Positions 29,392 through 57,351 of a DNA stretch of 60,129 nt are shown in pieces. How positions within the stretch are numbered: the first letter of the stretch is position 1; every line of letters starts with the position of its first letter. The notes beneath the pieces were generated by a model. It was not told the origin of the DNA. It ran no database searches and worked only from the letters and a program-made list of their open reading frames with translations. A program made the translations under genes and the position numbers. Origin of the DNA: an uncultured Candidatus Saccharibacteria bacterium (GTDB taxonomy: Bacteria; Patescibacteriota; Minisyncoccia; Sungbacterales; HO2-52-23). The stretch is from assembly GCA_964361495.1 (NCBI GenBank), contig CAYIAH010000003.1, forward strand, positions 1-60,129. Reading direction: 5' to 3'.

Positions 29392-29410
29392 AACTATATA
29401 AAGTTATTTT

Positions 29411-29440
29411 AAAAAAAGACCTCCGCGCGCGGTAGAGGTC
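29411..29440 (-). terminator. Rho-independent terminator
   Basis: On the minus strand the sequence is GACCTC-TACCGCGCGCG-GAGGTC followed by T7. It lies about 30 nt downstream of the IMPase-family stop (29472). It is the only clean GC stem plus U-tract I found in the window. Confidence 0.6.
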
Positions 29441-29471
29441 ATGAATCATTTGGGGATACTCACGCGCATGT

Positions 29472-30296: not shown

Positions 30297-30396
30297 CTAA
30301 ATTCTCCTTTCTTTAGCGTCTTCGTACACTCCTCGCGCTTATTGATAGCGAGTTGAAAGAACGCAACACACAGAATATCCCAAAATATAAAAATGG

Positions 30397-31011: not shown

Positions 31012-31014
31012 AAT

Positions 31015-32037
31015 TTATGCCCACATTCCATGGAGCTCCCTTCCCTTAAATACGACCTCCGACCCGGACTGCACAAAATGCACCGGAATTTCCTGCATTC
31101 CTTCGAGGTGAAGCGCGCCCGCGGTTTTTTTCATGGCATAGCGCAGCGCATCTTTCTTCTCCGGCGACAGCAAAAACATAATGCACCCGCCGCCGCCCGC
31201 GCCCAAGACTTTGCCGCCCCATGCGCCGTAATTCATTCCCGCATCATACAACGCGTCAAGAATCGAATTTGACACCGAAGACGCAAGTGTTTTTTTCTCC
31301 GTCCATCCCTGATGAAGCATGCTGCCTAGTCCTTCAAAATCTCCGGAGGCGAGTCGTTCACGAAATTCAAACACCGAATCCGCCATGCGGCAGAGCGTCT
31401 CAAACCGCGAGGGAATATTTACTTTTTGTTCCGCAAGCACGCCTGCGGCAAGCCGCGTGATTCCAGTGAAAAAAATAAGCAGGCGGTCTTCGAGCGCGAA
31501 CCGTTTTTTATAGTCAAGAAACACCGGATCCACGCCCACGGAGCCGTCCTGATTAAATTCAAAAACATTAAATCCTCCGAATGCCGCCGCATAGTGATCC
31601 TGTTTGCCGACGGGCTCCCGCAAACGTTCAATTTCAAGACGGCATGCGGCTTCAGCCGCCTCCCCGGCGTCCATTTTTTTCCCTTGATACGCCGAGAGGC
31701 CTTTCATCATCCCCACGGACAAACTTGACGAAAATCCCAAACCGGTTTTTACCGGCAAATGCCCGAAATACCCGATCTCAATATTGGAATGGATCCCCAT
31801 CTCAAGAAGCGCTTCGCGAATGACGTTATGCTGGAGTAAAGATGGATGCCCAACGCTCTCCGATATGCTGTATCGGACCGAGACGTTCTTCAAAAGCGGC
31901 GTGTGGTTGATCACCACATAGACATATTTGTCAATCGCGGTTGAGATCACGCGGCCGGTTCTTTTTGTATAAAACCCGGGGAGGTCAGTCCCTCCTCCAA
32001 GGAAACTCACGCGAAACGGTGTGCGGGTAATTATCAT
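31015..32037 (-). CDS. hddA: GHMP-family sugar kinase, D-glycero-alpha-D-manno-heptose-7-P kinase-like, copy 1
   Basis: TPFRVSFLGGGTDLPGFY N-terminus and the GHMP motif GLGFSSS. Confidence 0.75.
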   Translation of the reverse strand: MIITRTPFRVSFLGGGTDLPGFYTKRTGRVISTAIDKYVYVVINHTPLLKNVSVRYSISESVGHPSLLQHNVIREALLEMGIHSNIEIGYFGHLPVKTGLGFSSSLSVGMMKGLSAYQGKKMDAGEAAEAACRLEIERLREPVGKQDHYAAAFGGFNVFEFNQDGSVGVDPVFLDYKKRFALEDRLLIFFTGITRLAAGVLAEQKVNIPSRFETLCRMADSVFEFRERLASGDFEGLGSMLHQGWTEKKTLASSVSNSILDALYDAGMNYGAWGGKVLGAGGGGCIMFLLSPEKKDALRYAMKKTAGALHLEGMQEIPVHFVQSGSEVVFKGRELHGMWA

Positions 32038-36705: not shown

Positions 36706-37437
36706 TCAGCTCATCCAATTTTTAAAATCTGAAAGGAATTGCGCAATGACTTCATCGGTTTTGAAATGGGAAATCATATCCGGGAAAAACTTCGGCGGCA
36801 CGGTGACAATGTGCGCTCCCGCGAGTGCCGCGTCTCTCACGTCGGTTACTTTTCTGATACTGCCCGCGATAATCTCAACATTCGGATAGGAACGATCAAG
36901 AAGCATCCGGACCGCGCGCACCACTTCGTGCGGCGAGGCATCTTTTTCGTCGAGCGCACCCTTTTCAATCGCCGCGGCGTGTGTCACCGCGTGGCCGGGA
37001 TTCGCGCTGTCGCGAATTCTGCCCCAGAAGAGCGATACGTAACGGGCACCCGCCGCAGCGGCCATGGCCGCCTGACTCACCGTCATGCAGCAGGTGCAGT
37101 TGACCGAGAAACCATCTGCGGCGAGTTTCCGGATGGCCTCAAGTTCGTCCCATCCGATCTGCACTTTTATGGAGAGGTGTTCGTAACGGAACGTTTCCCG
37201 AAATTCGTTTGCCTGGCGCAGAATTTCTTCCGGATTTTGCGAGAATACTTCCACAGAAAGATGGATACCGTTCCCGAAGCGCCGGATCAATTCGATGATT
37301 TTTCCTATATGCGCGCTAAACTGCGTTTTCGGTTCTTTAGAGAGAAGCGACGGATTTGTGGTGATGCCGCGCACAAAGCCTCGTTTCAATGCGTCTTCGA
37401 TGTCATGAAGATTTGCCGAATCAATGAAGATTTTCAT
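36706..37437 (-). CDS. tal: Transaldolase / fructose-6-phosphate aldolase family (short TalC/Fsa type)
   Basis: MKIFIDSANLHDIEDALKRGFVRGITTNPSL. ATGA-coupled to gmhB. Confidence 0.85.
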   Translation of the reverse strand: MKIFIDSANLHDIEDALKRGFVRGITTNPSLLSKEPKTQFSAHIGKIIELIRRFGNGIHLSVEVFSQNPEEILRQANEFRETFRYEHLSIKVQIGWDELEAIRKLAADGFSVNCTCCMTVSQAAMAAAAGARYVSLFWGRIRDSANPGHAVTHAAAIEKGALDEKDASPHEVVRAVRMLLDRSYPNVEIIAGSIRKVTDVRDAALAGAHIVTVPPKFFPDMISHFKTDEVIAQFLSDFKNWMS

Positions 37438-37985
37438 AAAGGGTGTTGAAGTTTAATAATAAGTTCCGCGGCTGCGAAAAAATGTAATGCGCGATAGTCG
37501 CTTTTGATTCCCTCGTTGTACGGCGCGGAAATAAGGATGCTTTTGCTTCCCGCCGCGGCTGCGGCCGCCATGTCCGTGTCGCTGTCGCCGATAAAATAGG
37601 AACGGCGAAGATCAATGTTCCATGCGCGGGCCGCCTCCATGAGCATGCCCGGTTTCGGTTTTTTGCAGGAGCAGTTATCTTCGGTGCGATGCGGACACAT
37701 GCGGATATCGTCAAAGGGAAGTTTCTCCACTTCATTTTGAATGGCGCGCCACGCGTCTTGTGAAATAAGTCCTCGTGCGCGATCAGGTTGATTAGAGACG
37801 AGAATCCGCACGAATCCGTTTTGTCCAAGCAGTTCCAGCGCGGCCGCCGCACCGAGGATCAGTTCGAATTCTTCAAGCGCACGCGGAGCTGTGGGGAAAT
37901 TGAGTCCTTCGCGAACGATCCCTTTAACCACCACTCCGTCTCGATCAATAAATACTGCGCAACGTGTAAGATTGAGATCCGTCAT
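37434..37985 (-). CDS. gmhB: D,D-heptose 1,7-bisphosphate phosphatase (HAD), stand-alone copy
   Basis: VFIDRDGVVVKG and CPHRTEDNCSCKKPKPGML. Confidence 0.8.
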   Translation of the reverse strand: MTDLNLTRCAVFIDRDGVVVKGIVREGLNFPTAPRALEEFELILGAAAALELLGQNGFVRILVSNQPDRARGLISQDAWRAIQNEVEKLPFDDIRMCPHRTEDNCSCKKPKPGMLMEAARAWNIDLRRSYFIGDSDTDMAAAAAAGSKSILISAPYNEGIKSDYRALHFFAAAELIIKLQHPL

Positions 37986-38644
37986 TTTAACTTTGGCGCA
38001 AGCCCGAGCGTTTCAAAATAACGAAACTCCGCGATGAGTTCTTTCAGACGGAACGCGATGAGGTGATGCAGGAATACATGGAATGACTCCACGAGCGCGG
38101 TTGAATGCACGGGCACGACGATGGGAATGTCTGCCAATGTTTTCATTGGACCGCCTTCAAATCCGGAAAATCCGATCGTGGCGCCGCCGCGGTCTTTTAT
38201 ATACTGCAATCCTTTCAGAAGATTTTGCGACCATTTTCCGCCGACGTCAGATCCGCTGCCGCCATGCACGCTTATGCCAATCCCGATTCCCCCCGTTTCG
38301 TAATGAGTGTCAAGCCACGCGGTAAACATATCTTCTTTCGGGCGATCGTTCACAATGGCGCTGATGAGCGGGATGTTGTCCCAGGGTGCGGTTGCGCGAA
38401 GCCCCCGACTTCCCGGCTGGTCATTGATTGTTTTAGAAAGGTCTGCGGCAAAGTGAGACGCGGTGGATGCAGAGCCGCCATTGCCCATGATATAAACTGG
38501 AAGATCGGCGCGCCACGCATGAAAAAGCGCGTCAACCGCGGCATCAAGATGCCCGATCTCTTTTTCAGCGAGCGCTGAAAGCGTGTGCTCGCCGTCGCGC
38601 AGATACCGAAGAATATATTCCTGATGGTGCATAGGCGAATGCAA
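37982..38644 (-). CDS. gmhA: Phosphoheptose isomerase (SIS), copy 2
   Basis: YIMGNGGSASTASHFAADL. The ORF-track start is a TTG at 38644; an ATG alternative lies at 38632. Confidence 0.75.
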   Translation of the reverse strand: MHSPMHHQEYILRYLRDGEHTLSALAEKEIGHLDAAVDALFHAWRADLPVYIMGNGGSASTASHFAADLSKTINDQPGSRGLRATAPWDNIPLISAIVNDRPKEDMFTAWLDTHYETGGIGIGISVHGGSGSDVGGKWSQNLLKGLQYIKDRGGATIGFSGFEGGPMKTLADIPIVVPVHSTALVESFHVFLHHLIAFRLKELIAEFRYFETLGLAPKLK

Positions 38645-38710
38645 TGAATTCTAGATTAAGAAGTATCACGGGGGAGTTCAGCACGCAACTAAAGCATGCT
38701 CTAAAATTTG

Positions 38711-39688
38711 TTAGAGGAGAGTTGCGCCTTTCCAATCATAGGCGAAAGGGATTTCTTTGAAGCCCATTGTTGTGACGAGCCAGTCGTGGACATCAGCTTT
38801 TCTTTCCGGATTGGTGTAGAACATAAAAAACCCGCCGCCGCCCGCGCCCACGAGTTTTCCGCCGAGGGCCCCGCGCGTCCGCGCGCCTTCATAAATCTCG
38901 TCAAAATAAGGATCACTCACGCCCGAAAGATTTCGTTTGGCGGACCAGTGTTCGTGCAGCAGATTTCCAAAAGAAGCGGTGTCGCCCGAAACGATCGCGC
39001 GATACACGTCGCGGCCTATTTCTTTAATCGTTTTATAATACGAGATGACGGCGGGGTCGTCTTCGGCGAGTTCTTTTTGTTTTCCGAGGATCGCGGCGCT
39101 GTTGTGACGTCTGCCGGTATAAAAAAGTCCGATTCTTTGCGTAAGCGTGTGGAGGGTTTCCGATGCGACCTTCGGGGTTTTGACCTCAACGCTTCCGTCG
39201 GGCGCAATCTCCAAAAGCCGAAGTCCGCCAAATGACGCCATGTATTGATCATGTTTGCCGATGGGGCGTTTGAGAATGTCCATTTCCAGCGCCGCGGCGT
39301 ATTCGGCGAGTGTATGACGGTCAAGGGAGATATTTTTATCGTGATACAGCGTCTGTATGAGCCCCACCGCATAGGCGCCCGAGGTGCCGAGGCCCGTGCC
39401 GTCCGCGACATCGCTTAAGAACGCAACTTCAACACTGTCGCGTGTGCCCGCATGCGTGAGCGCCGCGCGCACGAGATCATTTTTAAGGGCATCCACCGAA
39501 TCCACGTCTTCGCTCACATGCGATTTGACGCGAATGCGCGAATCAAGCGCCGGGCGGTTAATGATGACGTATGCGTATTTGTCAAGCGCGACGCTCAAGA
39601 CAAACCCGCCGTGACGCGACGCGAAAAACGGGAGGTCAGTACCCCCTCCGCCAAGAGAAATGCGAACCGGCATGCGCGCGATAATCAT
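38711..39688 (-). CDS. hddA: GHMP-family heptose-7-P kinase-like, copy 2
   Basis: MPVRISLGGGGTDLPFF and GLGTSGA. Clearly homologous to copy 1 along its N-terminal region by eye, but divergent. Confidence 0.75.
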   Translation of the reverse strand: MIIARMPVRISLGGGGTDLPFFASRHGGFVLSVALDKYAYVIINRPALDSRIRVKSHVSEDVDSVDALKNDLVRAALTHAGTRDSVEVAFLSDVADGTGLGTSGAYAVGLIQTLYHDKNISLDRHTLAEYAAALEMDILKRPIGKHDQYMASFGGLRLLEIAPDGSVEVKTPKVASETLHTLTQRIGLFYTGRRHNSAAILGKQKELAEDDPAVISYYKTIKEIGRDVYRAIVSGDTASFGNLLHEHWSAKRNLSGVSDPYFDEIYEGARTRGALGGKLVGAGGGGFFMFYTNPERKADVHDWLVTTMGFKEIPFAYDWKGATLL

Positions 39689-39739
39689 GAATTAAACGTA
39701 CCGTACGCATACGGCAAGTCAAGGGGAATAATTGCTTTC

Positions 39740-41476
39740 ATGGGCGCCCTGTTATATGTTAAAAAAACTATACTTTCCAAAATGAATATCATGCCTCTAA
39801 AACAAGTATCTCGGCATCCCTATTTCTTCGTGGGAATCATTGTACTCGTGTGGCTCGCTTCATACATTCTTGTCCATTACACTGTCGGTGAATTTCTAAA
39901 CTGGGATGAAATCGAACATCTTTCTGTGGCGCGCGGAATCGTTCGCGATTTTGACTTCAGTGCGCGCGACTACACCATCATGGGGATCATCAAACAGGGA
40001 TATCCCGCTCATCTGAGTTATTATCCGGTATTTGCGACTTATTTGGCGTCCTTTATGGCGATTCTCGGAGATACGGCCGAAGTTGCTTATTTTGCAAATT
40101 GGATTGCGGCGTTAGCAACATCAATCCTTATATATCTCATTTCGCTCCGCCTCATTCCTCAAAGCCGCGCCTTCGCGTTTATCACTGCGCTCGCCTTTCT
40201 CTTCTTTCCCGGCAACTGGATGCATATTCAGTCCGCACTCATGGAGCAAGCGGGCGCATTTTTGATCGCCCTTGCCGCTCTCGTCTTCATACAAGAATAT
40301 ATGCGCGGGCGATTTACCGCATGGACGATTTTAAAATTCTCACTTCTTCTCGCGGTGCTTTGGTTTTTCAAAACGCTTCTGGTTGGTTTTTTCTTTGGAG
40401 CGGCGGCATTTTTTGCTTTTGTCTATTGGGAGCGCCGGCGCGGAAACGGCATACATCTCCGCATCTCCTTCCCCCTATTTTTAGCGGCAACCGGAGCGGG
40501 ATTTAGCGTTCTCGTCTTTCTTGGAACCTATTATCTCTTCTATCCGCTCTCGCCGTATTTCGTCGCCGTGCCCGCGCTGAAAACCGCCCAAGTATATGCT
40601 GACTTCCTCGGCGGATTTTTTAATAACTTCTGGCAGAACATATATGTGAACCTCACCCATCTCGTCACCCGTCTCATTTTCCAGCAAATCATCTATCCCG
40701 CGCAGCCGACTCCGTATCTCACTTCATTCATGGTATTCGTACGATATTATTTCTTCATATTTTTTGCGGCGCTGTTTTTTGCCGTCTCCGGATGGAAACG
40801 CATGACTCCCGTCATGCGCGTCTTCAGCGCGCTCTCGGTAGGCTCAATAATCGCATTTAACATTATTTTAAATACGATCGCCATTGAAGGGCCAGAGAAC
40901 ATTCATCGCTACAATCTTAATTATCTGCCGCTCTATCTTCCGTTCATAAGCATTATTTTCTATGCCAATTTAGGTTACCTGGCGCGATTCATGGAAGAAC
41001 ACCGACGCATCGCGCAGTATCTGGCAGGCCTTGTGATCGCCATATTTTACGTGCCGCTTTTTTTGACCATGTTCAAACACCAAATCTCTCTTCTGCACCG
41101 ATACAACACTCTCGGAAGCCGCACTTCAAAGATCATCACCGCATTTATAAGAGATTCGAAACCCGCATTTATTTATTTAAACAGAGGAGCGCACACTCAT
41201 TTCATTTCCTATCCGGTGCGGGTGGTCAGCGAGCAAGCGACTCACGAACAATTCGTCAAAGTAAATACCATTCTCCCCGAACCGATGAAATTTCTTTTCC
41301 TCACCGAACGCGACTGGCTGTATCAGGAGAATCGGGAAGAAATCGAACAGAAAAAATCAATTTTTAATGGCCAGTATGCGTATCAAGGCAGCGGTGTCCT
41401 ACCCGGAAAAAATCAAGACAAGGTAATGGTATACATGCTGAAAGAAAAAAATGCGCCTGCCGGCCCAGCCGACTAG
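39740..41476 (+). CDS. GT-C fold membrane glycosyltransferase (ArnT/PMT-like)
   Basis: Many hydrophobic segments and an acidic motif after TM1 (NWDEIEH). The start is set at the ATG at 39740 (or 39782), because the ORF-track 5' part (39452-39739) overlaps hddA antisense. Confidence 0.55.
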   Translation: MGALLYVKKTILSKMNIMPLKQVSRHPYFFVGIIVLVWLASYILVHYTVGEFLNWDEIEHLSVARGIVRDFDFSARDYTIMGIIKQGYPAHLSYYPVFATYLASFMAILGDTAEVAYFANWIAALATSILIYLISLRLIPQSRAFAFITALAFLFFPGNWMHIQSALMEQAGAFLIALAALVFIQEYMRGRFTAWTILKFSLLLAVLWFFKTLLVGFFFGAAAFFAFVYWERRRGNGIHLRISFPLFLAATGAGFSVLVFLGTYYLFYPLSPYFVAVPALKTAQVYADFLGGFFNNFWQNIYVNLTHLVTRLIFQQIIYPAQPTPYLTSFMVFVRYYFFIFFAALFFAVSGWKRMTPVMRVFSALSVGSIIAFNIILNTIAIEGPENIHRYNLNYLPLYLPFISIIFYANLGYLARFMEEHRRIAQYLAGLVIAIFYVPLFLTMFKHQISLLHRYNTLGSRTSKIITAFIRDSKPAFIYLNRGAHTHFISYPVRVVSEQATHEQFVKVNTILPEPMKFLFLTERDWLYQENREEIEQKKSIFNGQYAYQGSGVLPGKNQDKVMVYMLKEKNAPAGPAD

Positions 41477-41499: not shown

Positions 41500-43392
41500 C
41501 TACACGAGAGACGATCCGAGAAACCAACGATCATACCATAGTTGAAATACAATAAGAGTCCATAATTTTCTCGCATTATTCTCTTTGCCCGCATTATGGC
41601 GATCACATAGATTCGCAATATATTCGGGGTTGAATAATCCATGCCGCCCAAGAGCATCATGAGACAGCATGCGGGCGGCAAATTCTTTTAAGTCGTGTTT
41701 TAACCAATAGCTGAGGGGCACCCCGAAACCCTTTTTTACGCGATAGACGATTTCTTTTGGAAGCCGCGGCTCCATAAGTTTTTTTAAAATATATTTCGTG
41801 GTAAATCCGCGGTATTTAAAATCATACGGCAGCGCATTCACGAAGTTGACGACGTCAATATCTAAAAAAGGGGCGCGCACTTCGAGGGAATTCGCCATGC
41901 TTGAGCGATCCACTTTCACCAAAACTCCATCCATCATATAGGTGCGCTGATACAAATAGAGGATTTTCGATTCTTCGTCAGCTGCGCGCACTTCCCCATA
42001 ATACCGGTCAATGTCTTCAAATTCATTATATCCTGCAATCTCTTTCCAGACCGATGGCGAAAAAAGCATCGCGCGTTCAGGTCGCGAAAAACTTCCGAGC
42101 CACAATTGATGCTGATACCGGCGATCTCCCCGAAATCCGTCAAGAAACTTCTTCAGCCGAAAGTCAATGCTAAAATAGGTGTCTTTCACCGGAAGAGCCC
42201 GGATTGCCGGCTCTATCATTACTGTTCTCAGCAACGATGGAATTTTTGCGTATGCGCGAGCGATCTTATCGGCCTGAAAAGTGCTGTATCCGCAGAAAAG
42301 TTCATCTCCTCCGTCTCCGGCTAATGCCACGGTGACATATTCTCGGGCAAATTTAGACAAAAGATAGGTGGGAATGATCGAGACATCTGCGAGGGGTTCA
42401 TCCATCAATTCTTCCACCATCGGAATGACCTCCAACATATCTTGAGACGTCACAATCCGTGAGGCGTGATCCGTCCCAAGCGCTTCTGCGACCATCTGGG
42501 CATAACGCAACTCGTCATAACTATCCTCACGAAATCCGATCGAAAATGTTTTAATCTTCTTCGCGCTTGCCGTTTGCGCATAGTACGCGATGGTTGAGCT
42601 GTCGATTCCCCCGCTTAAAAATACGCCGAGCGGCACATCTGCGATCAATCGCAGACGAACGCTCTCTTGGAGTTGCCGATCCAATACATTCAGCGCTTCG
42701 GGAAGCGAAGTCGCGCGCGGAGCAATAAAATTCGGCTGCCAAAATATTCCCTTCTCCGCAATTTTTGTATCCCACACGAGATACTGTGCCGGTTCCAACT
42801 TGAACATTCCCGCAAAAATCGAATCCGGAGTCGGAATATATTCATATTGCAGGTACTTATTGACTGCGCCGATGTTAATTTCTTTCCTCACGAGAGGATG
42901 CGCAAGAACCGCCTTAATCTCTGATCCGAAAACCAATGTTTCCTGAAAAACGCCATAGTAAAGGGGCTTTTTCCCCATCCGATCCCGCCCTAAAATCAGT
43001 TTCCCCCGATTAAAATCGTAAAGCGCAATTGCAAACATTCCGTTAAATTTCTCAAAACAGCGCATGCCATATTCCTGATACGCATAGATAATTACTTCAG
43101 TATCGGTCTTTGACTTGAAGAAATATCTTCCAGTGGCAAGAAGCTCGTCCCGCAGGGTCTGAAAATTATAAATCTCTCCGTTAAATACAAGTCCGATTTT
43201 CTTCTCCCGATCAAACATAGGCTGACGGCCGTCTTCGGAAAGATCAATGATACTCAAACGGGCATTCGCGAATCCGATGCCTTGAGACAAAAAGACGCCC
43301 TGCTGATCAGGGCCGCGATGCTTTAGAGTCGCAATCATCCGTTGGAGATCGCGCTCATTTCCTTTTCCAATAAAACCGGCAATACCGCACAC
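41500..43392 (-). CDS. Asparagine synthase (glutamine-hydrolysing)-family amidotransferase
   Basis: MCGIAGFIG Ntn-amidotransferase N-terminus and the SGGIDSS PP-loop. Confidence 0.85.
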   Translation of the reverse strand: MCGIAGFIGKGNERDLQRMIATLKHRGPDQQGVFLSQGIGFANARLSIIDLSEDGRQPMFDREKKIGLVFNGEIYNFQTLRDELLATGRYFFKSKTDTEVIIYAYQEYGMRCFEKFNGMFAIALYDFNRGKLILGRDRMGKKPLYYGVFQETLVFGSEIKAVLAHPLVRKEINIGAVNKYLQYEYIPTPDSIFAGMFKLEPAQYLVWDTKIAEKGIFWQPNFIAPRATSLPEALNVLDRQLQESVRLRLIADVPLGVFLSGGIDSSTIAYYAQTASAKKIKTFSIGFREDSYDELRYAQMVAEALGTDHASRIVTSQDMLEVIPMVEELMDEPLADVSIIPTYLLSKFAREYVTVALAGDGGDELFCGYSTFQADKIARAYAKIPSLLRTVMIEPAIRALPVKDTYFSIDFRLKKFLDGFRGDRRYQHQLWLGSFSRPERAMLFSPSVWKEIAGYNEFEDIDRYYGEVRAADEESKILYLYQRTYMMDGVLVKVDRSSMANSLEVRAPFLDIDVVNFVNALPYDFKYRGFTTKYILKKLMEPRLPKEIVYRVKKGFGVPLSYWLKHDLKEFAARMLSHDALGRHGLFNPEYIANLCDRHNAGKENNARKLWTLIVFQLWYDRWFLGSSLV

Positions 43393-43398
43393 AGTGAA

Positions 43399-44340
43399 TC
43401 AAATATTGATTTTCCCTTTAATATGATATGGCGTTTTCTTTTGCGATTCATAGTAGGTGCGCATCACCATCTCTGCGAGCACCCCCATGATAATGAGCTG
43501 GATGCCTACAATAATAAAGAGCGCCGAGAGAATCGGCAGAGGCGTTCTTATCAATGACCTCCCCGAAATTATTTTAAGCATAACAGCGCCCGTCCCCGCG
43601 GCACATCCGATAAAAAATGCAAATAACCCGACTCCTCCAAAAAAATGAATCGGCCGATTCATGTAACGCGTAAGAAATTTAATCAGCAGGAGGTCGAGCA
43701 CCACCCGGAAAATCCGCGACAGGCCGTACTTGCTTGTCCCGTGGATTCTCGGCCGATACTTCACCGGAATCTCTGCCACGCGCGCCCCTTTCCAATAAAG
43801 ATACGCGGGGATAAAACGATGCATCTCTCCATAGAGCGGCACGCCGGCGATCGCTTCTCGCCGATAGGCTTTCAGCGTGCAGCCATAATCATGAAGCCGC
43901 AGTCCGCCGATTCTTGAAATCAGCCAGTTCGCAATCAGAGAAGGAAGTTTTCGTGCAAGAACGCGGTCGTTCCATCGTCCCTGCCGCCAGCCGGACACCA
44001 CGTCGTATCCCTCTTTGAGTTTTTCGAGAAGCCGCGGAATATCTTCTGGATCATTTTCAAGATCACTGTCAATCGTAACGATCACATCGCCCCGCGCGGC
44101 CGCAATCCCCGCGGCGAGTGCTGCGGTCTGTCCGAAGTTTCGGGAAAATTGAATAACTTTAAGACGGGGTTCACGTCCTGCGATGCGGGTGAGTTCCTCA
44201 AAACTCCTATCGCGCGAACCGTCATCAACCCCAATCAATTCAAATAATTCTTCGCGCCTTCCCAATACGGAAAGGAGCCTCTCAACCAGAGGATTGATAT
44301 TCTCCCGTTCGTTATACACCGGAAACACCGCAGAAATCAT
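43399..44340 (-). CDS. GT2 polyprenyl-phosphate glycosyltransferase (GtrB/ArnC-like), copy 2
   Basis: ISAVFPVYNERENI, GVDDGSRDRS and DSDLENDP motifs, plus two C-terminal TM helices. Confidence 0.8.
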   Translation of the reverse strand: MISAVFPVYNERENINPLVERLLSVLGRREELFELIGVDDGSRDRSFEELTRIAGREPRLKVIQFSRNFGQTAALAAGIAAARGDVIVTIDSDLENDPEDIPRLLEKLKEGYDVVSGWRQGRWNDRVLARKLPSLIANWLISRIGGLRLHDYGCTLKAYRREAIAGVPLYGEMHRFIPAYLYWKGARVAEIPVKYRPRIHGTSKYGLSRIFRVVLDLLLIKFLTRYMNRPIHFFGGVGLFAFFIGCAAGTGAVMLKIISGRSLIRTPLPILSALFIIVGIQLIIMGVLAEMVMRTYYESQKKTPYHIKGKINI

Positions 44341-45962
44341 GGTTTTCTTCGATAAAGCTTAAGCGTGCCCCCGTCATTTCCTTCCGTATATTTTCGCGGG
44401 TATACATTCAAAGCGGTTCCCACAAGCTCGTACTTCGTATCAATAATTTCCTGGATTTCTTTCATCCCGCGCCCCGCGTCTTCAGTCCCCGTGCCCCAAA
44501 AAGGCAACCGGAGAATCGCCCAAGGCCATCGTTCTTCATGCACCGCGAAATAATCAGCGCGCTCCGCGAGCCAGAACTTGACCATCTCCAGATTATAAAA
44601 TCCAAGACGCGCGACTTTCGCTGTATCGGCGTCTCCCAGAAGAAAAAAATTGCGATTCATCAAAGGAGCGAATGTTCGCCGGTCAGCCGCAAAAATATGA
44701 ATAATGGAATTATCAAGAGCGATAATCCGATCACCGGCGCCCGTGTGCGCGGCAAGAAACGCAGCGCCCCGATTCACGCGCGCAATATCGGATTCTTCTC
44801 TCGGATTTGAAACCACGTCAATCCGATAAAGATTCCCCGCGAGACCCAACACGATTGCCGCGCCCGCCATCGCAGAAAACAAACGATTCCCCGCCAGAAA
44901 TCGTGCGCCTCCGACCACGACTGCAAGAATCATCAAAGGAATAAAATAATTCGCGTAATATACGTGACTCACGATTCTTGGATAAAAATAATGGCTTCCC
45001 ATGAGCGCGAAAGACATAAAAATCAAAAGGGCGTACAGACGCTCGCGTCTCAAAAACGATACGAGCTCCCCCTTCTTTTCCAAAAAAATTGCCGAGAGTC
45101 CCGCAAAAAATAGTATCAGGATGCCCAGATACTCCCGGACAAAAGCGGTGAACGCCTCAAGAAACTGCATCAGCGTCTGCCCCCCTTCTTTTGATGATGC
45201 AGGAAGCCCGCTCAATGGACCGATATTTCCGAAAGGGCTCACCGCATAGGCAAATGCAAGCGACGGATCATGCACCATCAATGGAAAATATCCGAGTGCC
45301 GTGAACCCCGCGACGAGAACGCAAAAGAATATAATTTCTCTGAAACTCACTTTAATAAAAAAATAGTAGGCGAGAATCGCGAGTACGGCGGCGACCATAT
45401 TCGCGCGCGTGAGAATGAGCACCGCGCTCGCCGCCGCCATGATAATTATTTTTTTATCCCGCGAGATCTTCCATGTTTCGCTCCAGACCGCGCATAAAAG
45501 AGTCGACATCACGATCGAATAGCTCGTCGCGGAAACATAATTTCCCGCGAGGAGGATATTGCTCACAATGAGCGCGAGCGCGGCAAAAGCCCATTCTTTG
45601 CTTCCATTCCGCGCCGCGAGCCGATACACAAGAAAAAGGGTTGCGGCAAAAAATGCGCTTGCGAGAATCCGTCCTGCATATAAACTCGGCCCGAAGAAGT
45701 ACTGTACGGCTCCGTGCGTCGGGATGATAAACGGGGGGTAGGGAAAAACACCGTCCCGAAACGGAATGAATTCTCCTTTCACGACAAGAAAACTGCGCCA
45801 TGCGGCAAAAAGTTCATCCACCCAAAATTCGCGGTAAAGAATCAACGCCGTGATTTCTGCCGCCGCAAAAAATGCGATACCTATGAGGCCGCAAAGCGTC
45901 AAAGCGCGCCGAGAGATAAGCGACGATCTATGCATATACCGACTGTACCTTATACTTGACAA
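44337..45962 (-). CDS. GT-C fold membrane glycosyltransferase (ArnT/PMT-like)
   Basis: Polytopic, with an acidic motif after TM1 (FWVDELF). ATGA-coupled to the GtrB-like gene. The ORF-track start is a TTG at 45962; an ATG alternative lies at 45935. Confidence 0.55.
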   Translation of the reverse strand: MSSIRYSRYMHRSSLISRRALTLCGLIGIAFFAAAEITALILYREFWVDELFAAWRSFLVVKGEFIPFRDGVFPYPPFIIPTHGAVQYFFGPSLYAGRILASAFFAATLFLVYRLAARNGSKEWAFAALALIVSNILLAGNYVSATSYSIVMSTLLCAVWSETWKISRDKKIIIMAAASAVLILTRANMVAAVLAILAYYFFIKVSFREIIFFCVLVAGFTALGYFPLMVHDPSLAFAYAVSPFGNIGPLSGLPASSKEGGQTLMQFLEAFTAFVREYLGILILFFAGLSAIFLEKKGELVSFLRRERLYALLIFMSFALMGSHYFYPRIVSHVYYANYFIPLMILAVVVGGARFLAGNRLFSAMAGAAIVLGLAGNLYRIDVVSNPREESDIARVNRGAAFLAAHTGAGDRIIALDNSIIHIFAADRRTFAPLMNRNFFLLGDADTAKVARLGFYNLEMVKFWLAERADYFAVHEERWPWAILRLPFWGTGTEDAGRGMKEIQEIIDTKYELVGTALNVYPRKYTEGNDGGTLKLYRRKP

Positions 45963-47365
45963 TTTTTCAAAAGAAGTTCAATAATTTCTTCCGCAGTACT
46001 CCGGCTACGAACTGGACACATGGTCCGGCGCATCAATGCCCGGCCGTCTCTATCCAGAGACGGATTATCAAGATATTTTTTAATCGCGGCGTACAGATCA
46101 TCAAACGTGCGCGTGACCCGAATTCCGCCTGTCGCATACACATCCTGAAAATGGGTGAATCCTTCAAATCTACGGACGGAGCGATGAAAAGGTCTTGCGC
46201 GATGTCCATCAAATCCGATCGCGATGAGCGGCCGATCAAAAAGCGCGACCTCAAGTGCGGCTGTGCTGAATGCAGAAAGCACTACGTCCGCGTGCGCCAT
46301 CAAATTAAGCAGTTCTCTGGTGCCGGGAAGATCGTGCCATGATTCGCGCTGATAAAAAACCACGCGCGGATGGGTTTTGAATCCTTCAAATTTTTTTATG
46401 TCAAAATCGCGATCGCGCAGACGCCCGCCAAGATACGGACGGATTACCAGCCGCACGTCATGCGGCAAGAATCGTCCTTCATCAATCCAGCGAAGCACTT
46501 CCTCAATGACGTCCGGCTCGTCAGGACAATAGACGCTTCCGGAAATATAGAGAAGATATTTCGTATCCCTCGGAAACCCGATTGAAGATAAAAGGGCGCT
46601 GCGCGGGATAAGATATTCTTTGCTATTGATAAAATCAAAATGCGGATATCCGATCACCATAATCTCGGCTGGTCTATAACCCTGAAGACGCACCGCGGCA
46701 TCCCGAATGTGGTTATTTTGCGCAAAGAACAAATCAGTCCGTACCGGCATGAAATATTTATCAATGTGATCCCAATTTGCCGTCATCCCGACGGTTTTTA
46801 TCCCATGCGCTTTCGCGTCGCGAGCGCATACTGTATCAAACCATCCGTAAAGATTCGGAACAAACACAAGATCAGGATGATATGTATGCAGTACATCCGA
46901 AAAGGGTTCCGCGGGAAACAGATAGTCAAAAAGCGCGGGTACCGCTTTTTGTGTAATAAATGAAGACCTCCCAAATGTCTCGGCAATCGCGGCCTTCATG
47001 GGCGCAAGATACCTGCTTCCCGCGAACATCTCATCAGGGCGAGTTCCCATCGTCGCGAGAAGCCGCGTCGTGCTCGTGTAAATAAGATACGAGTAGAAGA
47101 ACCGAAAAAGCCGCGCAACGATTCCTTGCGGCGCAGGGACACTGACGTAGTCAATAAAAATTTGTTCCGGAAAACGGCGAATCATGGACGCGCACCACGG
47201 CCCATACTTTTCTTTATAGTAATCGGGCATCACGACAACCGCACGGAATGATTTTTCTTTATCTGCCGCGCACAGTGCGCCTAACTTTTCCCAGAAACTC
47301 CCCGGAAAGAGAAAAAAATTCTTAAAGACCGGCTGCGATGAAAGCGTGATGATAAAAGTATTCAT
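45950..47365 (-). CDS. TagB/TagF-like GT-B transferase, paralog 2 (most divergent)
   Basis: IGYPHFD, KYLLYISG and ADVVLSAFSTAALEVALFDRPLIAIGF. Same motif order as the other three paralogs. Confidence 0.5.
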   Translation of the reverse strand: MNTFIITLSSQPVFKNFFLFPGSFWEKLGALCAADKEKSFRAVVVMPDYYKEKYGPWCASMIRRFPEQIFIDYVSVPAPQGIVARLFRFFYSYLIYTSTTRLLATMGTRPDEMFAGSRYLAPMKAAIAETFGRSSFITQKAVPALFDYLFPAEPFSDVLHTYHPDLVFVPNLYGWFDTVCARDAKAHGIKTVGMTANWDHIDKYFMPVRTDLFFAQNNHIRDAAVRLQGYRPAEIMVIGYPHFDFINSKEYLIPRSALLSSIGFPRDTKYLLYISGSVYCPDEPDVIEEVLRWIDEGRFLPHDVRLVIRPYLGGRLRDRDFDIKKFEGFKTHPRVVFYQRESWHDLPGTRELLNLMAHADVVLSAFSTAALEVALFDRPLIAIGFDGHRARPFHRSVRRFEGFTHFQDVYATGGIRVTRTFDDLYAAIKKYLDNPSLDRDGRALMRRTMCPVRSRSTAEEIIELLLKNCQV

Positions 47366-48774
47366 AGAGTTCGTGACTCGCGGGATAACGTCCGCAACTC
47401 CAAGGCATCAAGAAGCGCATGCGCGAGGCGTTCGGCAGAACGTCCGTCCATATATTCGCACTGCTCGGCAACAATTTTTTTTCTCCCTTCGCCAAGATCA
47501 GACGGATCGCGAAGCGCCCGATTCACCGCTTCTAATAATTCTTCACGGCTTTTGACAAGCCGTATGCCGTTCAGTTTTTTTATATCGGCAAGATGGTTCC
47601 AATCAAAAAAGCGCGAGGCAGAATCCCAGTACTTGCGCGGCCGCGCGCCGTCAAAACCGATACCGATAAGCGGCTTATCAAAAATCGCCGCTTCAATGAA
47701 AAATGTTGAATACATAGTGAGCACGCAATCCGCGTGGGCGAGACTGTTCGTAATCAGCGACAAAGCCGCATGATCAAATTCCCAGCTCTCCGCTCCATCC
47801 CCCACATGCGCCACCGGAGATGCGACAAGAAATCCGTACTTCTCGCGCAACCGTTCAAGCTTCTCGAGCGGAAAGTCGTATCGCGGATAAGGCCGAAGAA
47901 GCACCTGAACGTTGTCCGATATTTCTTTTTTCTGGAGCGCGTCATACAGCATCTCTATAATTTCAAATTCTATTTCGAGGCCGGCTTTCCCCGAAAAAGC
48001 GTATAGTATTAATTTCTTTGCAGGATCTGCGCCGATTTTTTTAAAAAATTCAGCGCGCTCCTCCATCCCTTCGCGGCGAAAATGCCGATCATACTGCGGC
48101 ACGCCGACGATGAAACTCTTGCCACGCGGAAAATCTCCAAAACGCTCTGCTGCGTCTCTCACATACCGCGTCTGAACGAACAAGAGGTCTGGATGAACAC
48201 GAAGCAGGGTTTTACTGAAAAGATTGTCCCATGAAAGAACCATTCCTGCGGTTTTTATTTTGCGGCGGCGCGCCTCCCGCAGAAATGCGTAATCACGACC
48301 GATCATTGTCGGACAAAAAAGAAGATCGGGCGCATAGCGATCAAAAATCCGGGAAACCCCCGCATTGGAGAAGAAAAGGTAGAATCGGCGCACAGCGCCG
48401 CGCCACCACGAATATCTGCCCGCATGCCATAATGCGCGTCTCAACAAAAAGAGCGGGATTTTGCGCGCGATCGCCCTCGCCGACTTCTCACGCGACATGT
48501 CCCAATGCTGCAGCATATTTTCCGTGCGGGAATGAATGCTTGAGGTTTCGATCAATTTAAAAAAGCGTTCAATGCATGTTTCCTTCGTCTCAGAAATTTC
48601 CTCAAATATAAAAGATGCCGATGAAAATTCTTTTCGATAATAATCAACTTTTTCCCGGGTTGCGAGAAATACGACGCGCACATCGGACGCCGCCTGAAGA
48701 ATCCGACGCGCATCCGTCCGGAGAAACGTCCGCACGAAAAAATTACTGGTGATGGGAATTAAGATAGTTTTCAT
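47362..48774 (-). CDS. TagB/TagF-like GT-B transferase, paralog 3
   Basis: VGVPQYD, KKLILYAF and ADCVLTMYSTFFIEAAIFDKPLIGIGF. The ATG at 48774 (MKTILIPIT) is preferred over the TTG at 48798. Confidence 0.55.
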   Translation of the reverse strand: MKTILIPITSNFFVRTFLRTDARRILQAASDVRVVFLATREKVDYYRKEFSSASFIFEEISETKETCIERFFKLIETSSIHSRTENMLQHWDMSREKSARAIARKIPLFLLRRALWHAGRYSWWRGAVRRFYLFFSNAGVSRIFDRYAPDLLFCPTMIGRDYAFLREARRRKIKTAGMVLSWDNLFSKTLLRVHPDLLFVQTRYVRDAAERFGDFPRGKSFIVGVPQYDRHFRREGMEERAEFFKKIGADPAKKLILYAFSGKAGLEIEFEIIEMLYDALQKKEISDNVQVLLRPYPRYDFPLEKLERLREKYGFLVASPVAHVGDGAESWEFDHAALSLITNSLAHADCVLTMYSTFFIEAAIFDKPLIGIGFDGARPRKYWDSASRFFDWNHLADIKKLNGIRLVKSREELLEAVNRALRDPSDLGEGRKKIVAEQCEYMDGRSAERLAHALLDALELRTLSRESRTL

Positions 48775-48784
48775 ATTATAATTT

Positions 48785-50134
48785 CTAAGAACGGTCAAGC
48801 ATATTCAAAAGTTCGCCGGCCATACGCGCGCCCGCATGCCCGTCCGCATGGGAAAACCACAACGCCCGGCCGCGCGCTCTTCCCTCTCGATCGCGATCGG
48901 GATTTTTAAGATAGTCGTCAATGGCTCCAAGAAACGTTTCTTTCGTCCCGGCATAGCGCACCGCGCCCGTGGCGAGAAGTTTCTGAATGTGCAGATCCCC
49001 ATAGCGCCACGCGGTGTCAAAAAACGGCCGCGGCGTCGGATAGATATTCACCGCAATCACCGGCTTGTCAAAAAAGATGCCGTCCAGACAAATGCTTGTC
49101 GGACCAGTGATCACAAGGTCCGCGTGCGCGAGCATTACAGCAAGACGTTCATCGTCTTCGGGACGGATCTCGCGATCTCCCACTTCTTTGTCCTTAAATA
49201 CAAATCCAGGCCGGTCAAACGCCATATGCCGCGGCGGTACGAAACCGTCGAGCGTCACGCCTTTTTCCGGCGGAAATCGGACAAGAATTGACGCATCCCG
49301 AACCTCGCTCAAAAGGTTCAAAATATATTGATCCGCGTCATTCTTGCGAATAAGCGCGTTGCTTATGGGCGCATAGACAATGAGTTTTTTTAACGGATCA
49401 AGTCCGTATTCCCGGCATAACTCTTCTCGCGATTGCCGGATGGAACTGGATTGATACCCGTCATAATGGGGATTTCCAGTGATCACCGCGCGAGATCGGG
49501 GATACCGATGAAACCGATCCAGCTCCTGCCGAAGCGTCTCCGATCCGACAAGAAGCGTGTCCGGGAAAATCCGCAAAATCCGCAAGGTGAGATTATCCCA
49601 CGAGCGCACCATGCCAACCGTGCGCACCCCGAATCGGCGCGCATCCTGCATCAAAGCCACATCATTTTCATTTTGTACATCGGTCGAAAAAATGAGGTTC
49701 GGATGATACTTCCGAAGGAGCGGCTCAAAAATCCCGCGCGGCGAAAACCGGTAATCCAGCGCGCGCACGCGCGCGCGGATAAAAAATAATCGTCCGATGG
49801 CCCCGAGGGACAATCCCAGAGCGAACTGCAGCGGTTTTTTATTCACGTGATACTGGTACCGCTTGAGATTTCGGGCGCTTCTTGAATCAAAAAGAAACAT
49901 GCCGAGTTTCTTAAAAAAAAGTCCCCGAAACAAGCGTGATGCCTGATAGGGCTTTACGCCCTCAATCATCACATTAGGTCCGCCGAATTGTTCTCGGAAG
50001 TATGCGCTCTTATACTCCGGCACTACGATCACAATCTGTAGACGTTTCTCGGCGCGAAGAATCCGAAATGCTTCGGTTGAAAGAATGTTTCTCGAAATAT
50101 GAGGATGAAAACTGGTGATAAAAATTGTTTTCAT
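48785..50134 (-). CDS. TagB/TagF-like GT-B transferase, paralog 4
   Basis: TGNPHYD, KKLIVYAP and ADLVITGPTSICLDGIFFDKPVIAV. This paralog is the closest to the canonical TagF motifs. Confidence 0.55.
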   Translation of the reverse strand: MKTIFITSFHPHISRNILSTEAFRILRAEKRLQIVIVVPEYKSAYFREQFGGPNVMIEGVKPYQASRLFRGLFFKKLGMFLFDSRSARNLKRYQYHVNKKPLQFALGLSLGAIGRLFFIRARVRALDYRFSPRGIFEPLLRKYHPNLIFSTDVQNENDVALMQDARRFGVRTVGMVRSWDNLTLRILRIFPDTLLVGSETLRQELDRFHRYPRSRAVITGNPHYDGYQSSSIRQSREELCREYGLDPLKKLIVYAPISNALIRKNDADQYILNLLSEVRDASILVRFPPEKGVTLDGFVPPRHMAFDRPGFVFKDKEVGDREIRPEDDERLAVMLAHADLVITGPTSICLDGIFFDKPVIAVNIYPTPRPFFDTAWRYGDLHIQKLLATGAVRYAGTKETFLGAIDDYLKNPDRDREGRARGRALWFSHADGHAGARMAGELLNMLDRS

Positions 50135-51327
50135 AGAGAACCGGAATTGACAATCGCGGCATTGAACAATTCAAGCATCGCGTCAGCATACTGCGGCCAT
50201 GAGATATGTTTCTCAACAAATGCCCGGCCGTTTCTGCTTATCTGCATGTATAACGCCGGATTGCTGATTAATTCCTCAACCGCCGCCGCAATGCCACGCG
50301 GGTCTTTTGGCTCAATAAGGAACGCATTCACTCCGTCAGTTAAAACTTCATGGGCGCCCGCACTGCGGGATACGATCGCCGGCGTCCCGCACGCCATTGC
50401 TTCAAACACCGCCATGCCCCATGACTGCAGATGACACGGAAATACGAATGCGCCGCTCTCCTGATAATATCGGACCAGTTCCGATTCAGACACCACGCCC
50501 GCGAAACGTACCGCCTCCTGCAGTCCAAGGTCGCTACGCAATGCGATCAGTTTTTCAAAGTAGGGATCCCGAGGCGAATACCCTCCCACAATCGTACAGA
50601 AAGTTCTATACCCGCGCTGAGAGAGCATCTTCACTGCGGTAATCAAATCCTCAAAACGGCGGTGGGGAAAGAGAATCCCTACGGCAAGCAGATTTAATTT
50701 TTTATCTTTTATCGGCGGAAGCGGCCGGTAAGGAAACCGAGGGAGGTCAAGACCGCTTCGCACCACGGTCGCCTCCTTGCCGAAAAATTGCCGCACCCAT
50801 TCACGGTCGCGATTATCAAGCACCGCAATCGCATCTTGCGCTCTAATTGCGGTACCAATATCATAGCGATCGTACACACGCCGTATCCATTTTCTGAACG
50901 GAGAGACCCGCCGCCTCAATCCGCACTCGCGTTCGCGCCAGTACCCCCACGTTTTCGTCGGCATATCGTTCATCATCCATACCGAAGGAATGTTCCGTAC
51001 ATACTTTTTGAAATAATACGCAACGCGATAACTCACCTGATCATGCGGATTCAGAAGCTCCGTATCGCGTGCGATCAGTGCGGCGAGGCGCCGGGAAACG
51101 CGGCACTCGTTCCAGAAATCAATCAGCGCGTTCCGGCTTTTTGGGTAGGCGCCGAGCGGAACCACGGACAGTCCTTGCAACAGTTCGGCATTCGCTCCTT
51201 CGCCGCGAAGAAAAGTATAGACGACCACATGGTGACCTCGTTTTTTAAGATTCTGCGCGAAAAAAAGGGCTTGCCTCTGCGTGCCGCCCTCTACATTGAG
51301 TCGCCGGATGATTAATGCAATCTTCAT
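50131..51327 (-). CDS. GT4 glycosyltransferase
   Basis: [19 protein letters not shown]-terminus and the [22 protein letters not shown]7E region. Confidence 0.8.
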
Positions 51328-56299: not shown

Positions 56300-57351
56300 C
56301 TTCGGGAGCCCTCCCCAAGAAGCGGCACAAGTTGCGTAATCATCCGATCAAGACTATGACGTTCCGTGACGATCCGCCGGAGTATTTCATTCGGCCGCGG
56401 ATCGCCCGCAAGAGCTCCCAGACGCCCCGCGACAAACTCGGGACTCGTGTGTTCAAGAAAATATCGCGGCGGCAGAATATCGCGGTACGCTTCATTCGCA
56501 GTCAGCACCGTGCGTCCGCATGCCATTGCTTCGAGCACCGCTTTATCAAGCGATCCGGTCGCCGAAAGATTCAAAAAGAAATCGTGTTCGTTGAGAAACG
56601 CAGGGATCTCGCGGTATGGCCGCGGGCCGAGAAACTGCACGGCGCGCGCGAGCCCCGCATCCGCGACATACTTCCGAAGCAGAAGATAATACTTCTCGTC
56701 ATGCGCCGTCATTGGCCCTCCCGCGATGGAAAGCATCCAGCGTCCGGGCTCTTTTTTCTCCAGGATCTCAAGCGCTTTCAGCATTGTCTCATAATCTTTC
56801 ACCGGCGAGATTCGGCCCACCGTGATAATCCGCATACCCGACCCTTCGCGAAACGATTCTCTCTTGTCAGGACAAAATGCATCGGTATCAATCGCCTGCC
56901 CGGTATAGATCACTTTTTTCGAAGGAAGACGAAATCCGTTCGCCGATGAAGTAATCACCGTAGTCACAAGACGTTCCGCAACTTTCAATTTCCACGACAC
57001 GACGCCGTGCGCATACCAAAGAATCGACCGGCGCGGCATTGTTTTGAGAAAAGGCGCGGCGGCGAGCACAAATTCAGGAATCTGATGAAATAAGATAGCG
57101 TCCGATTCGCGGTAGTGGCGCGCGAAAAGCTTCATGAATTTGACGAACCTCCCGAACCGTCCGCGCGTTCCCCTTTCTCCCGTGCCAAAAACCGCAATCT
57201 TCACATGAGAAGGCAATTCTGCGTCGCCCGCCTCGCGGCAGAGAATCGTGAAAGCGTCCGCATGCGGCGCGAGTTTTTCCCACCATCGGTAAAAAGCTCC
57301 GAGGTTCTCATCGTTCCTGTCTACTTTTTGGGTGATCGCCAATAATCTCAT
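56296..57351 (-). CDS. GT-B glycosyltransferase (GT4-like)
   Basis: MRLLAITQKVD and GSLDKAVLEAMACGRTVLT. The ATG at 57351 forms an ATGA overlap with the upstream stop; the ORF-track start at 57363 is a GTG. Confidence 0.7.
   Translation of the reverse strand: MRLLAITQKVDRNDENLGAFYRWWEKLAPHADAFTILCREAGDAELPSHVKIAVFGTGERGTRGRFGRFVKFMKLFARHYRESDAILFHQIPEFVLAAAPFLKTMPRRSILWYAHGVVSWKLKVAERLVTTVITSSANGFRLPSKKVIYTGQAIDTDAFCPDKRESFREGSGMRIITVGRISPVKDYETMLKALEILEKKEPGRWMLSIAGGPMTAHDEKYYLLLRKYVADAGLARAVQFLGPRPYREIPAFLNEHDFFLNLSATGSLDKAVLEAMACGRTVLTANEAYRDILPPRYFLEHTSPEFVAGRLGALAGDPRPNEILRRIVTERHSLDRMITQLVPLLGEGSRR

Follow-up and report, generated by a model that had tools for sequence, protein, structure and literature searches.

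Four paralogous genes in a 60,129-nt stretch of DNA (contig CAYIAH010000003.1 of an uncultured Candidatus Saccharibacteria bacterium; hereafter the window) code for proteins that belong to a large but unnamed GT-B family, which lies between the TagF-like enzymes and the nonulosonic acid (NulO) transferases of Tannerella. The genes were designated copies A, B, C and D: D, C and B form a tandem triplet, and copy A is a distal paralog within a NulO operon (Table 1). A preliminary description of the sequence interpreted the copies as TagF-like transferases that synthesize a teichoic acid-like polymer. That interpretation was upheld in part: the proteins are relatives of TagF, but the phosphotransferase catalytic set has been lost. 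The favored donor instead is cytidine monophosphate (CMP)-nonulosonate, which the same description had listed among substrates for assay. With moderate confidence, the sequences and gene context suggest that copies A to D are monotopic GT-B glycosyltransferases with CMP-nonulosonate donors, and the confidence is higher for copy A than for copies B to D.

The four copies are full-length paralogs

The three adjacent genes and the distal open reading frame (ORF) are paralogs as proposed originally. Their coordinates agree with those given previously, and all are on the minus strand, which the preliminary description had left unstated. The proteins align over their full lengths with 27–33% identity, and BLASTP E-values for the pairs extend from 4e-30 to 1e-59 (A/C, 1e-59; A/D, 1e-58; C/D, 2e-48; B/C, 2e-42; A/B, 1e-32; B/D, 4e-30). 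A scan of the window with a family hidden Markov model (HMM) detected exactly four members, with no fifth paralog. Residue numbers below are those of copy C, the ORF of which reaches further 5′ to a TTG codon at 48798.

Most of the motifs noted previously were recovered. The G-x-P-(Q/H)-(Y/F)-D motif is present in all four copies (GIPQYD, GYPHFD, GVPQYD and GNPHYD), as is the (D/G)(K/R)P(V/L)I block, and the C-terminal DG(K/R)S.ER element is shared by copies A and C. The N-terminal MKT pattern holds generally and K-(K/Y)-L-(I/L)-(V/L)-Y fits the other copies, but copy B departs from both: the protein begins MNTFII, and its TKYLLY segment lies outside the motif as it was written.

The four copies fell into four separate clades in a neighbor-joining tree. 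As each clade is common to many Parcubacteria, the duplications are old. The same invariant residues are kept in all four proteins, which therefore probably share one chemistry.

Similarity to TagF-like enzymes

In a scan with the Glyphos_transf HMM, copies A (37.0 bits), B (31.2 bits), C (44.6 bits) and D (33.8 bits) all exceeded the gathering threshold of 22.1, as the preliminary description had anticipated. The match spans HMM positions ~134–366 only, and the similarity is limited to the C-terminal two-thirds. Proteobacterial relatives scored under the threshold (21.7, 15.1 and 11.9 bits). For comparison, a canonical set of 10 TagF-like enzymes that includes annotated TarL and TarF was assembled from plasmid records; a homologue search with a 117-residue TarL fragment had returned only fragments of ≤197 residues. 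Alignment with hhalign against the ten canonical enzymes gave probabilities of 98.4–99.1%. The best match in a profile search of the PDB was TarL (8VA1; E = 7e-7), followed by uridine diphosphate (UDP)-sugar 2-epimerases (5e-5) and the capsule polymerase Cps3D (4e-3).

An AlphaFold (AF2) model of copy C is confident (pLDDT 91.8) and adopts a GT-B fold into which helices are inserted at residues 67–147. This insertion is cationic and aromatic-rich, and the protein has no transmembrane segment, an arrangement similar to the helices by which TagF and TarL are described to bind the membrane monotopically (PMC10901376). When the model was used as a Foldseek query, NeuC/WecB epimerases, MshA and MGD1 ranked first with TM values of 0.45–0.56, and BshA and OtsA also were recovered. 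No TagF or TarL chain was among the top 50 matches listed. Kinship with the Glyphos_transf family is supported by the Pfam, hhalign and PDB sequence matches, but does not extend to the catalytic histidines considered below, and the fold search was headed by other GT-B enzymes. No characterized subfamily fits these diverged copies, in agreement with the initial inspection of the sequence.

The catalytic histidine pair is absent

Residues that are invariant in the 10 canonical enzymes (TarL numbering) are W299-H300, K306, the G-x-P-R361-x-D motif, P395-T396-x-R398, H433, D467, D472-Y-S-S and R501. The TagF counterpart of the W-H histidine is H444, the catalytic base, and that of the H-P histidine is H584, which contacts the α-phosphate. 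TarL requires both H300 and H433, and TagB and TagF likewise require the equivalent residues (PMC10901376).

A different set is conserved among 40 family sequences from the candidate phyla radiation (CPR) and proteobacteria. Residues W182, D183, G224, D229, R294, H394 and R431 are invariant in this set, and S181, K188, Q227, P297, D443-G444 and R449 nearly so. No invariant histidine is present in the N-domain across the 40 sequences; an S-W-D motif is conserved instead. TarL H433 is matched by Y296 in copy C and by either Tyr or Phe in the other three copies, within R-P-Y-P or R-F-P-P, whereas the proteobacterial clade retains the H-P histidine as R-C-H-P. The conserved R294, two residues upstream of the H-P position, is a new invariant of the family. 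Thus, the W-H and H-P histidines, whose presence the preliminary description had made decisive for its phosphotransferase reading, are both missing in copies A to D.

Further elements of the canonical site also have changed. The G-x-P-R-x-D motif is replaced by G-x-P-(Q/H)-x-D, P-T-x-R is absent, and T-D-Y-S-S retains only the Ser/Thr pair, its Asp and Tyr being unconserved. The stretch that follows the W-H position is ~25–30 residues shorter than in canonical enzymes. The shortened region includes the polyol-site loop of TarL, which forms the polyol pocket in that enzyme (PMC10901376).

Gene context in related genomes

A profile search of 1.84 billion representatives returned 3,025 sequences at E ≤ 1e-30 and 6,961 at E ≤ 1e-10. 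The W-D motif was found in 141 of 145 retrieved representatives. Close homologues derived only from Patescibacteria/CPR, specifically Sungbacteria, Giovannonibacteria, Taylorbacteria and other Parcubacteria. A search of a plasmid collection with copy A recovered a single homologue, a Rhizobium ‘hypothetical protein’ whose gene immediately follows neuC and a gene for acylneuraminate cytidylyltransferase. The relatives of this protein mostly are unnamed and score below the Pfam threshold. Eight non-CPR loci were inspected (Rhizobium, Polaromonas, a Rickettsiales metagenome-assembled genome and five metagenome contigs), and the gene order NeuB-NeuC-X-CTP_transf_3, in which X is the family member, was observed in every one. 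No TagD or TarI/TarJ gene was detected in these eight loci.

The CPR sample comprised 34 species-representative loci, nine of which have NulO genes within 10 kb of the family member. A NulO gene lies within 6 kb in five of seven loci with A-type orthologues, compared to 4/26, 8/34 and 2/18 loci for B, C and D, respectively. Linkage to both a NeuB/PseI-type synthase gene and a CMP-NulO synthetase gene characterizes copy A and all eight non-CPR loci, but not the D-C-B triplet when considered alone. Overall, the gene context favors CMP-nonulosonate donors.

The proteobacterial loci (L045, L046–L052) tend to carry Capsule_synth (KpsS/KpsC-like) proteins and an AsnB-like amidotransferase. An LPG_synthase_TM-Wzy_C protein is encoded in L048, and an LPG_synthase_TM gene also is present in the window (16427–17605). 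Other proteins of 445–475 residues without assigned function in L045–L048 were considered as further family members and were rejected, as the family HMM identifies one strong member per locus.

The search of representatives also recovered proteins in which two or three family modules are joined in one chain (P0279–P0283, P0342 and P0309). In P0279 (897 residues), a D-like module precedes an A-like module. Some of these polypeptides could be artifacts of gene calling or assembly. Such natural fusions of two or three modules nevertheless suggest cooperation between the tandem copies.

Copy A is embedded in a NulO operon

The window is one long surface-glycan island in which nearly all genes are on the minus strand. 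Copy A is located in an operon whose products are, in order, a CMP-synthetase-like protein, a small nucleotidyltransferase, a NeuB-cupin fusion, a HAD phosphatase, an oxidoreductase, copy A, NeuC, a methyltransferase and a second CMP-synthetase-like protein (Table 1). Most junctions in the operon are 4-bp overlaps. Copy A overlaps the upstream oxidoreductase gene by 4 bp and shares an ATGA overlap with neuC if the latter starts at 3697. Copy A is translationally coupled between NulO genes. The NeuB-cupin protein scored 141 bits with the NeuB_NnaB model and 134 bits with PseI, both below cut-off. The same fusion occurs in three related loci (L016, L022 and L023) at 56–61% identity. A gene for a PAPS-reductase-domain protein is situated at the end of the operon (93–770, minus strand), and a PaaX-like regulator domain protein is encoded beside it (9708–10286, minus strand).

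The triplet and its conserved neighbors

Copies D, C and B form one operon with genes for a GT4 glycosyltransferase, a polytopic membrane protein and a GT2 glycosyltransferase. Start and stop codons overlap by 4 bp at the GT4-D, C-B and membrane protein-GT2 junctions and by 13 bp between B and the membrane protein gene, and D and C are separated by 10 bp. The order GT4-D-C-B-membrane protein-GT2 recurs across Parcubacterial lineages, with D-C-B found in Sungbacteria, Giovannonibacteria and Taylorbacteria. Orthologues of copy C were identified in 34 Patescibacteria genomes (45–76% identity), and copy D has its own orthologous clade in Parcubacteria. In many related loci the GT4 gene directly precedes D or C, and the membrane protein gene comes after copy B in L001, L005, L006, L014, L015, L017, L024, L033 and others. 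The membrane protein, which has no sequence match in Pfam, NCBIfam or the PDB, may be a polymerase, a ligase or a GT-C-type enzyme. A GDP-mannose dehydratase gene also is among the fixed neighbors of the triplet. The AsnB-like gene adjoins the triplet repeatedly in CPR loci and is present in the proteobacterial NulO loci L048 and L049.

TABLE 1. Coordinates of the family members and associated genes in the 60,129-nt window.
Feature	Position	Strand	Description
Copy A	3694–5046	minus	ORF of 450 residues; distal paralog within NulO operon
Copy B	45950–47365	minus	ORF of 471 residues; last gene of triplet
Copy C	47362–48774	minus	470 residues from MKT start; middle gene of triplet; modeled copy
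Copy D	48785–50134	minus	ORF of 449 residues; first gene of tandem triplet
CMP-nonulosonate/Kdo synthetase-like cytidylyltransferase	8830–9564	minus	CTP_transf_3; best NCBIfam model PseF, 134.6 bits (cut-off 205.7)
Small HxGH nucleotidyltransferase	8317–8784	minus	CTP_transf_like; between NeuB and CMP-synthetase genes
NeuB-family nonulosonate synthase with C-terminal cupin	6724–8277	minus	517 residues; Pfam NeuB, Cupin_2
HAD phosphatase	6089–6727	minus	Pfam HAD_2
GFO/IDH/MocA-like oxidoreductase	5043–6092	minus	Pfam GFO_IDH_MocA
NeuC-type hydrolyzing UDP-GlcNAc 2-epimerase	2507–3769	minus	NCBIfam NeuC_NnaA 316 bits (cut-off 235.9); probable start 3697
CMP-nonulosonate/Kdo synthetase-like cytidylyltransferase	797–1525	minus	CTP_transf_3; PseF 144.5 bits, below cut-off
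GT4 glycosyltransferase	50131–51327	minus	Pfam Glycos_transf_1 and Glyco_transf_4; conserved upstream partner of triplet
Polytopic membrane protein	44337–45962	minus	541 residues; at least 9 hydrophobic segments; conserved downstream partner
GT2 glycosyltransferase	43399–44340	minus	Pfam Glycos_transf_2; same operon as triplet; kept after membrane protein
AsnB-like glutamine amidotransferase	41500–43392	minus	Pfam Asn_synthase and GATase_7

Elsewhere in the island, two heptose-nucleotide gene sets (27188–32037 and 37434–39688, both minus strand) comprise a SIS/GmhA-like isomerase, a GHMP kinase, a HAD phosphatase and an NTP-transferase-HAD fusion. Transketolase (10402–12282, plus strand) and transaldolase (36706–37437, minus strand) genes are present and could supply sedoheptulose-7-phosphate. 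Two more polytopic membrane proteins without a Pfam or NCBIfam match are encoded at 33739–35736 (plus strand; at least 7 hydrophobic segments) and 39452–41476 (plus strand; at least 10). A 920-residue ORF (57348–60110, minus strand) that ends near the window edge contains three GT4 (Glycos_transf_1) modules in one polypeptide.

Proposed function of the family

In the proposed mechanism, the cationic helices would attach the enzymes to the inner face of the membrane. The C-terminal half, which is shared with TagF-like transferases as a domain that binds a CMP or cytidine diphosphate (CDP) nucleotide, would operate with a different catalytic set: it would bind a CMP-nonulosonic acid (or a related ulosonic acid) produced through the NeuC, NeuB and CMP-synthetase genes of the island, and the sugar would be passed to a lipid-linked glycan. 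Residue D183 may act as a base on the acceptor hydroxyl in an inverting reaction, as in GT-B sialyltransferases, or alternatively as a nucleophile on the anomeric carbon in a retaining reaction, as in the GT99, GT107, GT118 and GT140 families (PMC12887879). Residues R294, H394 and R431 would stabilize the phosphate of the departing CMP. Copy A would serve its own operon. Copies D, C and B may function together with the GT4, GT2 and polytopic membrane proteins in a fixed module. In this module, the GT4 and GT2 enzymes would build the lipid-linked glycan, the three copies would extend it by residues that are successive or differ in linkage, and the polytopic protein may polymerize, flip or ligate the product.

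A broader reading that combines these elements is put forward tentatively. The family might be a new class of NulO glycosyltransferase that arose from a TagF scaffold by a change of W-H to W-D, which would redirect attack from the β-phosphorus of a CDP-polyol to C2 of a CMP-sugar. Its gene might hold a fixed fourth place in many proteobacterial neuB-neuC-X-neuA operons, and the D-C-B module, a product of triplication in Parcubacteria, might build an oligo- or poly-nonulosonate glycan, an acidic ‘teichoic acid substitute’ on tiny symbionts.

The W-H to W-D change presupposes that S-W-D occupies the position of W-H, which the predicted topology supports in that both motifs follow the fifth N-domain strand. 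The profile alignment of these motifs, however, is among several points that weigh against assignment of the copies as CMP-nonulosonate transferases. In local, global and low-mact modes, hhalign sets W-H on the preceding helix opposite a non-conserved Arg/Lys/His, and always pairs KTVGF of TarL with the KTAGM strand of the family. Because this placement conflicts with the predicted strand order, the equivalence of S-W-D and W-H is offered conditionally. The invariant W-H histidine is absent under either alignment. In addition, the copies pass the Glyphos_transf threshold and have TarL as the best PDB sequence match, and a small TagD/RfaE-like nucleotidyltransferase gene is present in the window. 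The triplet is ~37 kb from the NulO genes in the window, and usually is apart from NulO genes in other loci according to the frequencies given above. The link with the BFO_1060 family that is described below is remote. Finally, the Capsule_synth-type proteins of the proteobacterial loci could be the actual NulO transferases.

Alternative functions

The sequence matches to Glyphos_transf, TarL and Cps3D, the shared DG.S..R element, and membrane-association helices like those of TagF and TarL are compatible with copies A to D as true TagF-type polyol-phosphate transferases. These enzymes would use CDP-glycerol, supplied via the product of the gene at 8317–8784, or another CDP-alditol to form a phosphodiester polymer, with an Asp as base and an Arg in place of the second His. 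This alternative is unlikely. Both histidines that are essential in TagB, TagF and TarL are missing, P-T-x-R and the Asp of T-D-Y-S-S have been lost, and the polyol-loop stretch is truncated. The gene at 8317–8784 had been designated TagD-like, a label that proved ambiguous: the protein is 37% identical to Pontibacillus TagD, but scores better with rfaE_dom_II (72.8 bits) than with g3p_cytidyltrns (58.9 bits), both values being far below cut-off. Only one of the 34 related CPR loci has a homologue at a distance of 10 kb or less from a family member, and neither TarI nor TarJ was found in 546 kb of related loci. Moreover, whereas TagD, TarI/TarJ or another nucleotidyltransferase gene is beside the transferase gene in six of the 10 canonical loci, linkage to TagD or TarI/TarJ was seen in none of the eight non-CPR family loci.

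The copies instead might be ordinary GT-B transferases with UDP-, GDP- or dTDP-activated heptose, 6-deoxy or amino sugars, such that the association with NulO genes reflects no more than shared membership of the island. Generic GT-B enzymes (MshA, BshA, MGD1, OtsA and the 2-epimerases) led the fold search, the fixed neighbors of the triplet are GT4, GT2 and GDP-mannose dehydratase genes, and many pathways for nucleotide sugars of this type are encoded in the island. However, the sole transferase relatives at the sequence level, the TagF-like enzymes and BFO_1060, employ cytidine-nucleotide donors and release CMP, and a fixed position between NeuC and the CMP synthetase in eight of eight unrelated loci is too constant for coincidence. 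Transfer from such donors is quite unlikely.

It is highly improbable that the copies are non-transferase GT-B enzymes of nonulosonate synthesis or modification, for example epimerases or hydrolases like NeuC, LegG or PseG, as suggested by the NeuC and WecB epimerases atop the Foldseek matches, the UDP-sugar 2-epimerases in the PDB profile search and the location of X between the NeuC and CMP-synthetase genes, since matches to Epimerase_2 are weak (13–17 bits; cut-off 30.6), a bona fide NeuC already is encoded in every locus, the cationic, aromatic helical insertion points to activity at the membrane, and three to four paralogs with multi-module fusions fit transferases or polymerases better.

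Implications of the proposed assignment

Members of the family are named ‘CDP-glycerol glycerophosphotransferase family protein’ or ‘hypothetical protein’ in databases. The former name would lead to the inference of teichoic acids in CPR bacteria, whereas the sequence evidence is that the phosphotransferase catalytic set is gone. A literature search on nonulosonic or teichoic acids in Patescibacteria retrieved nothing relevant. Few transferases for sialic acid-like sugars of bacteria, such as pseudaminic and legionaminic acids, are known, and knowledge of them has been called scarce (PMC5420450). If the CMP-nonulosonate assignment is correct, a name could be given to ~3,000 or more sequence clusters and the missing transferase of many neuB-neuC-neuA operons would be identified. 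The family then would illustrate a natural His-to-Asp switch from phosphotransferase to glycosyltransferase, and an acidic, nonulosonate-rich surface glycan would be a conserved trait of Parcubacteria, bacteria that depend on contact with host cells.

Comparison with known systems

Among NCBIfam models, BFO_1060 (NF046086) matched the window copies best, with scores of 41.2 (A), 22.7 (B), 40.5 (C) and 29.0 (D) bits, compared to ≤17 bits for the TarF, TarL and TarB models. BFO_1060 also was the commonest NCBIfam match of the proteobacterial members (14–29 bits in five of eight; no match in three). As the scores are far below the cut-off of 200, the window copies are not members of BFO_1060. The characterized BFO_1060 proteins are Tanf_01245 and TFUB4_00887 of Tannerella forsythia, deletion of which removes terminal pseudaminic or legionaminic acid (PMC5420450). 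Both families consist of TagB-like GT-B proteins that are encoded with nonulosonate biosynthesis genes, and the match to BFO_1060 takes in the C-terminus as well as the part of the N-domain that surrounds S-W-D. By the published description, BFO_1060 possesses H-P and D/E-D/E-G motifs (PMC5420450), whereas the H-P histidine is lacking in the window copies.

The UDP-GlcNAc 2-epimerases (PF02350; NeuC and WecB) resemble the family as the top Foldseek matches and in an H-P-type strand-loop of the C-domain. However, TM values were only 0.45–0.56, and these enzymes lack the membrane-association insertion.

With the TagF-like enzymes (PF04464), the family shares the GT-B fold, the N-domain helical insertion for monotopic membrane binding and a homologous C-terminal half that binds the nucleotide and contains the G-x-P-x-x-D motif of the domain linker, a (D/N)(K/R)P-hydrophobic strand and a terminal DG.S..R. 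It differs in having S-W-D for W-H, Tyr or Phe for the H-P histidine, and the additional invariant residues H394 and R431. Furthermore, TagD or TarI/TarJ genes are not linked in the loci compared, apart from the single TagD-like case among the 34 CPR loci.

The retaining ulosonic acid transferases WbbB (GT99), KpsC (GT107), KpsS1 (GT118) and KrkA (GT140) (PMC12887879) are GT-B-like enzymes with CMP-Kdo or CMP-Pse donors and an essential Asp, and KpsC likewise consists of two diverged modules in tandem. However, no sequence similarity to them was found, and Capsule_synth-type proteins are the products of separate genes in the same proteobacterial loci. Neither these four families nor GT38, GT52 or GT80 were among PDB profile matches at E ≤ 10 or the top 50 Foldseek matches listed. 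Nevertheless, the GT-B sialyltransferases and polysialyltransferases of GT38, GT52 and GT80 offer a parallel for the proposed mechanism: an N-domain carboxylate would act as base while C-domain residues bind the phosphate of a CMP-sugar, and the genes for these enzymes, like those of the family, are located within neuBCA operons.

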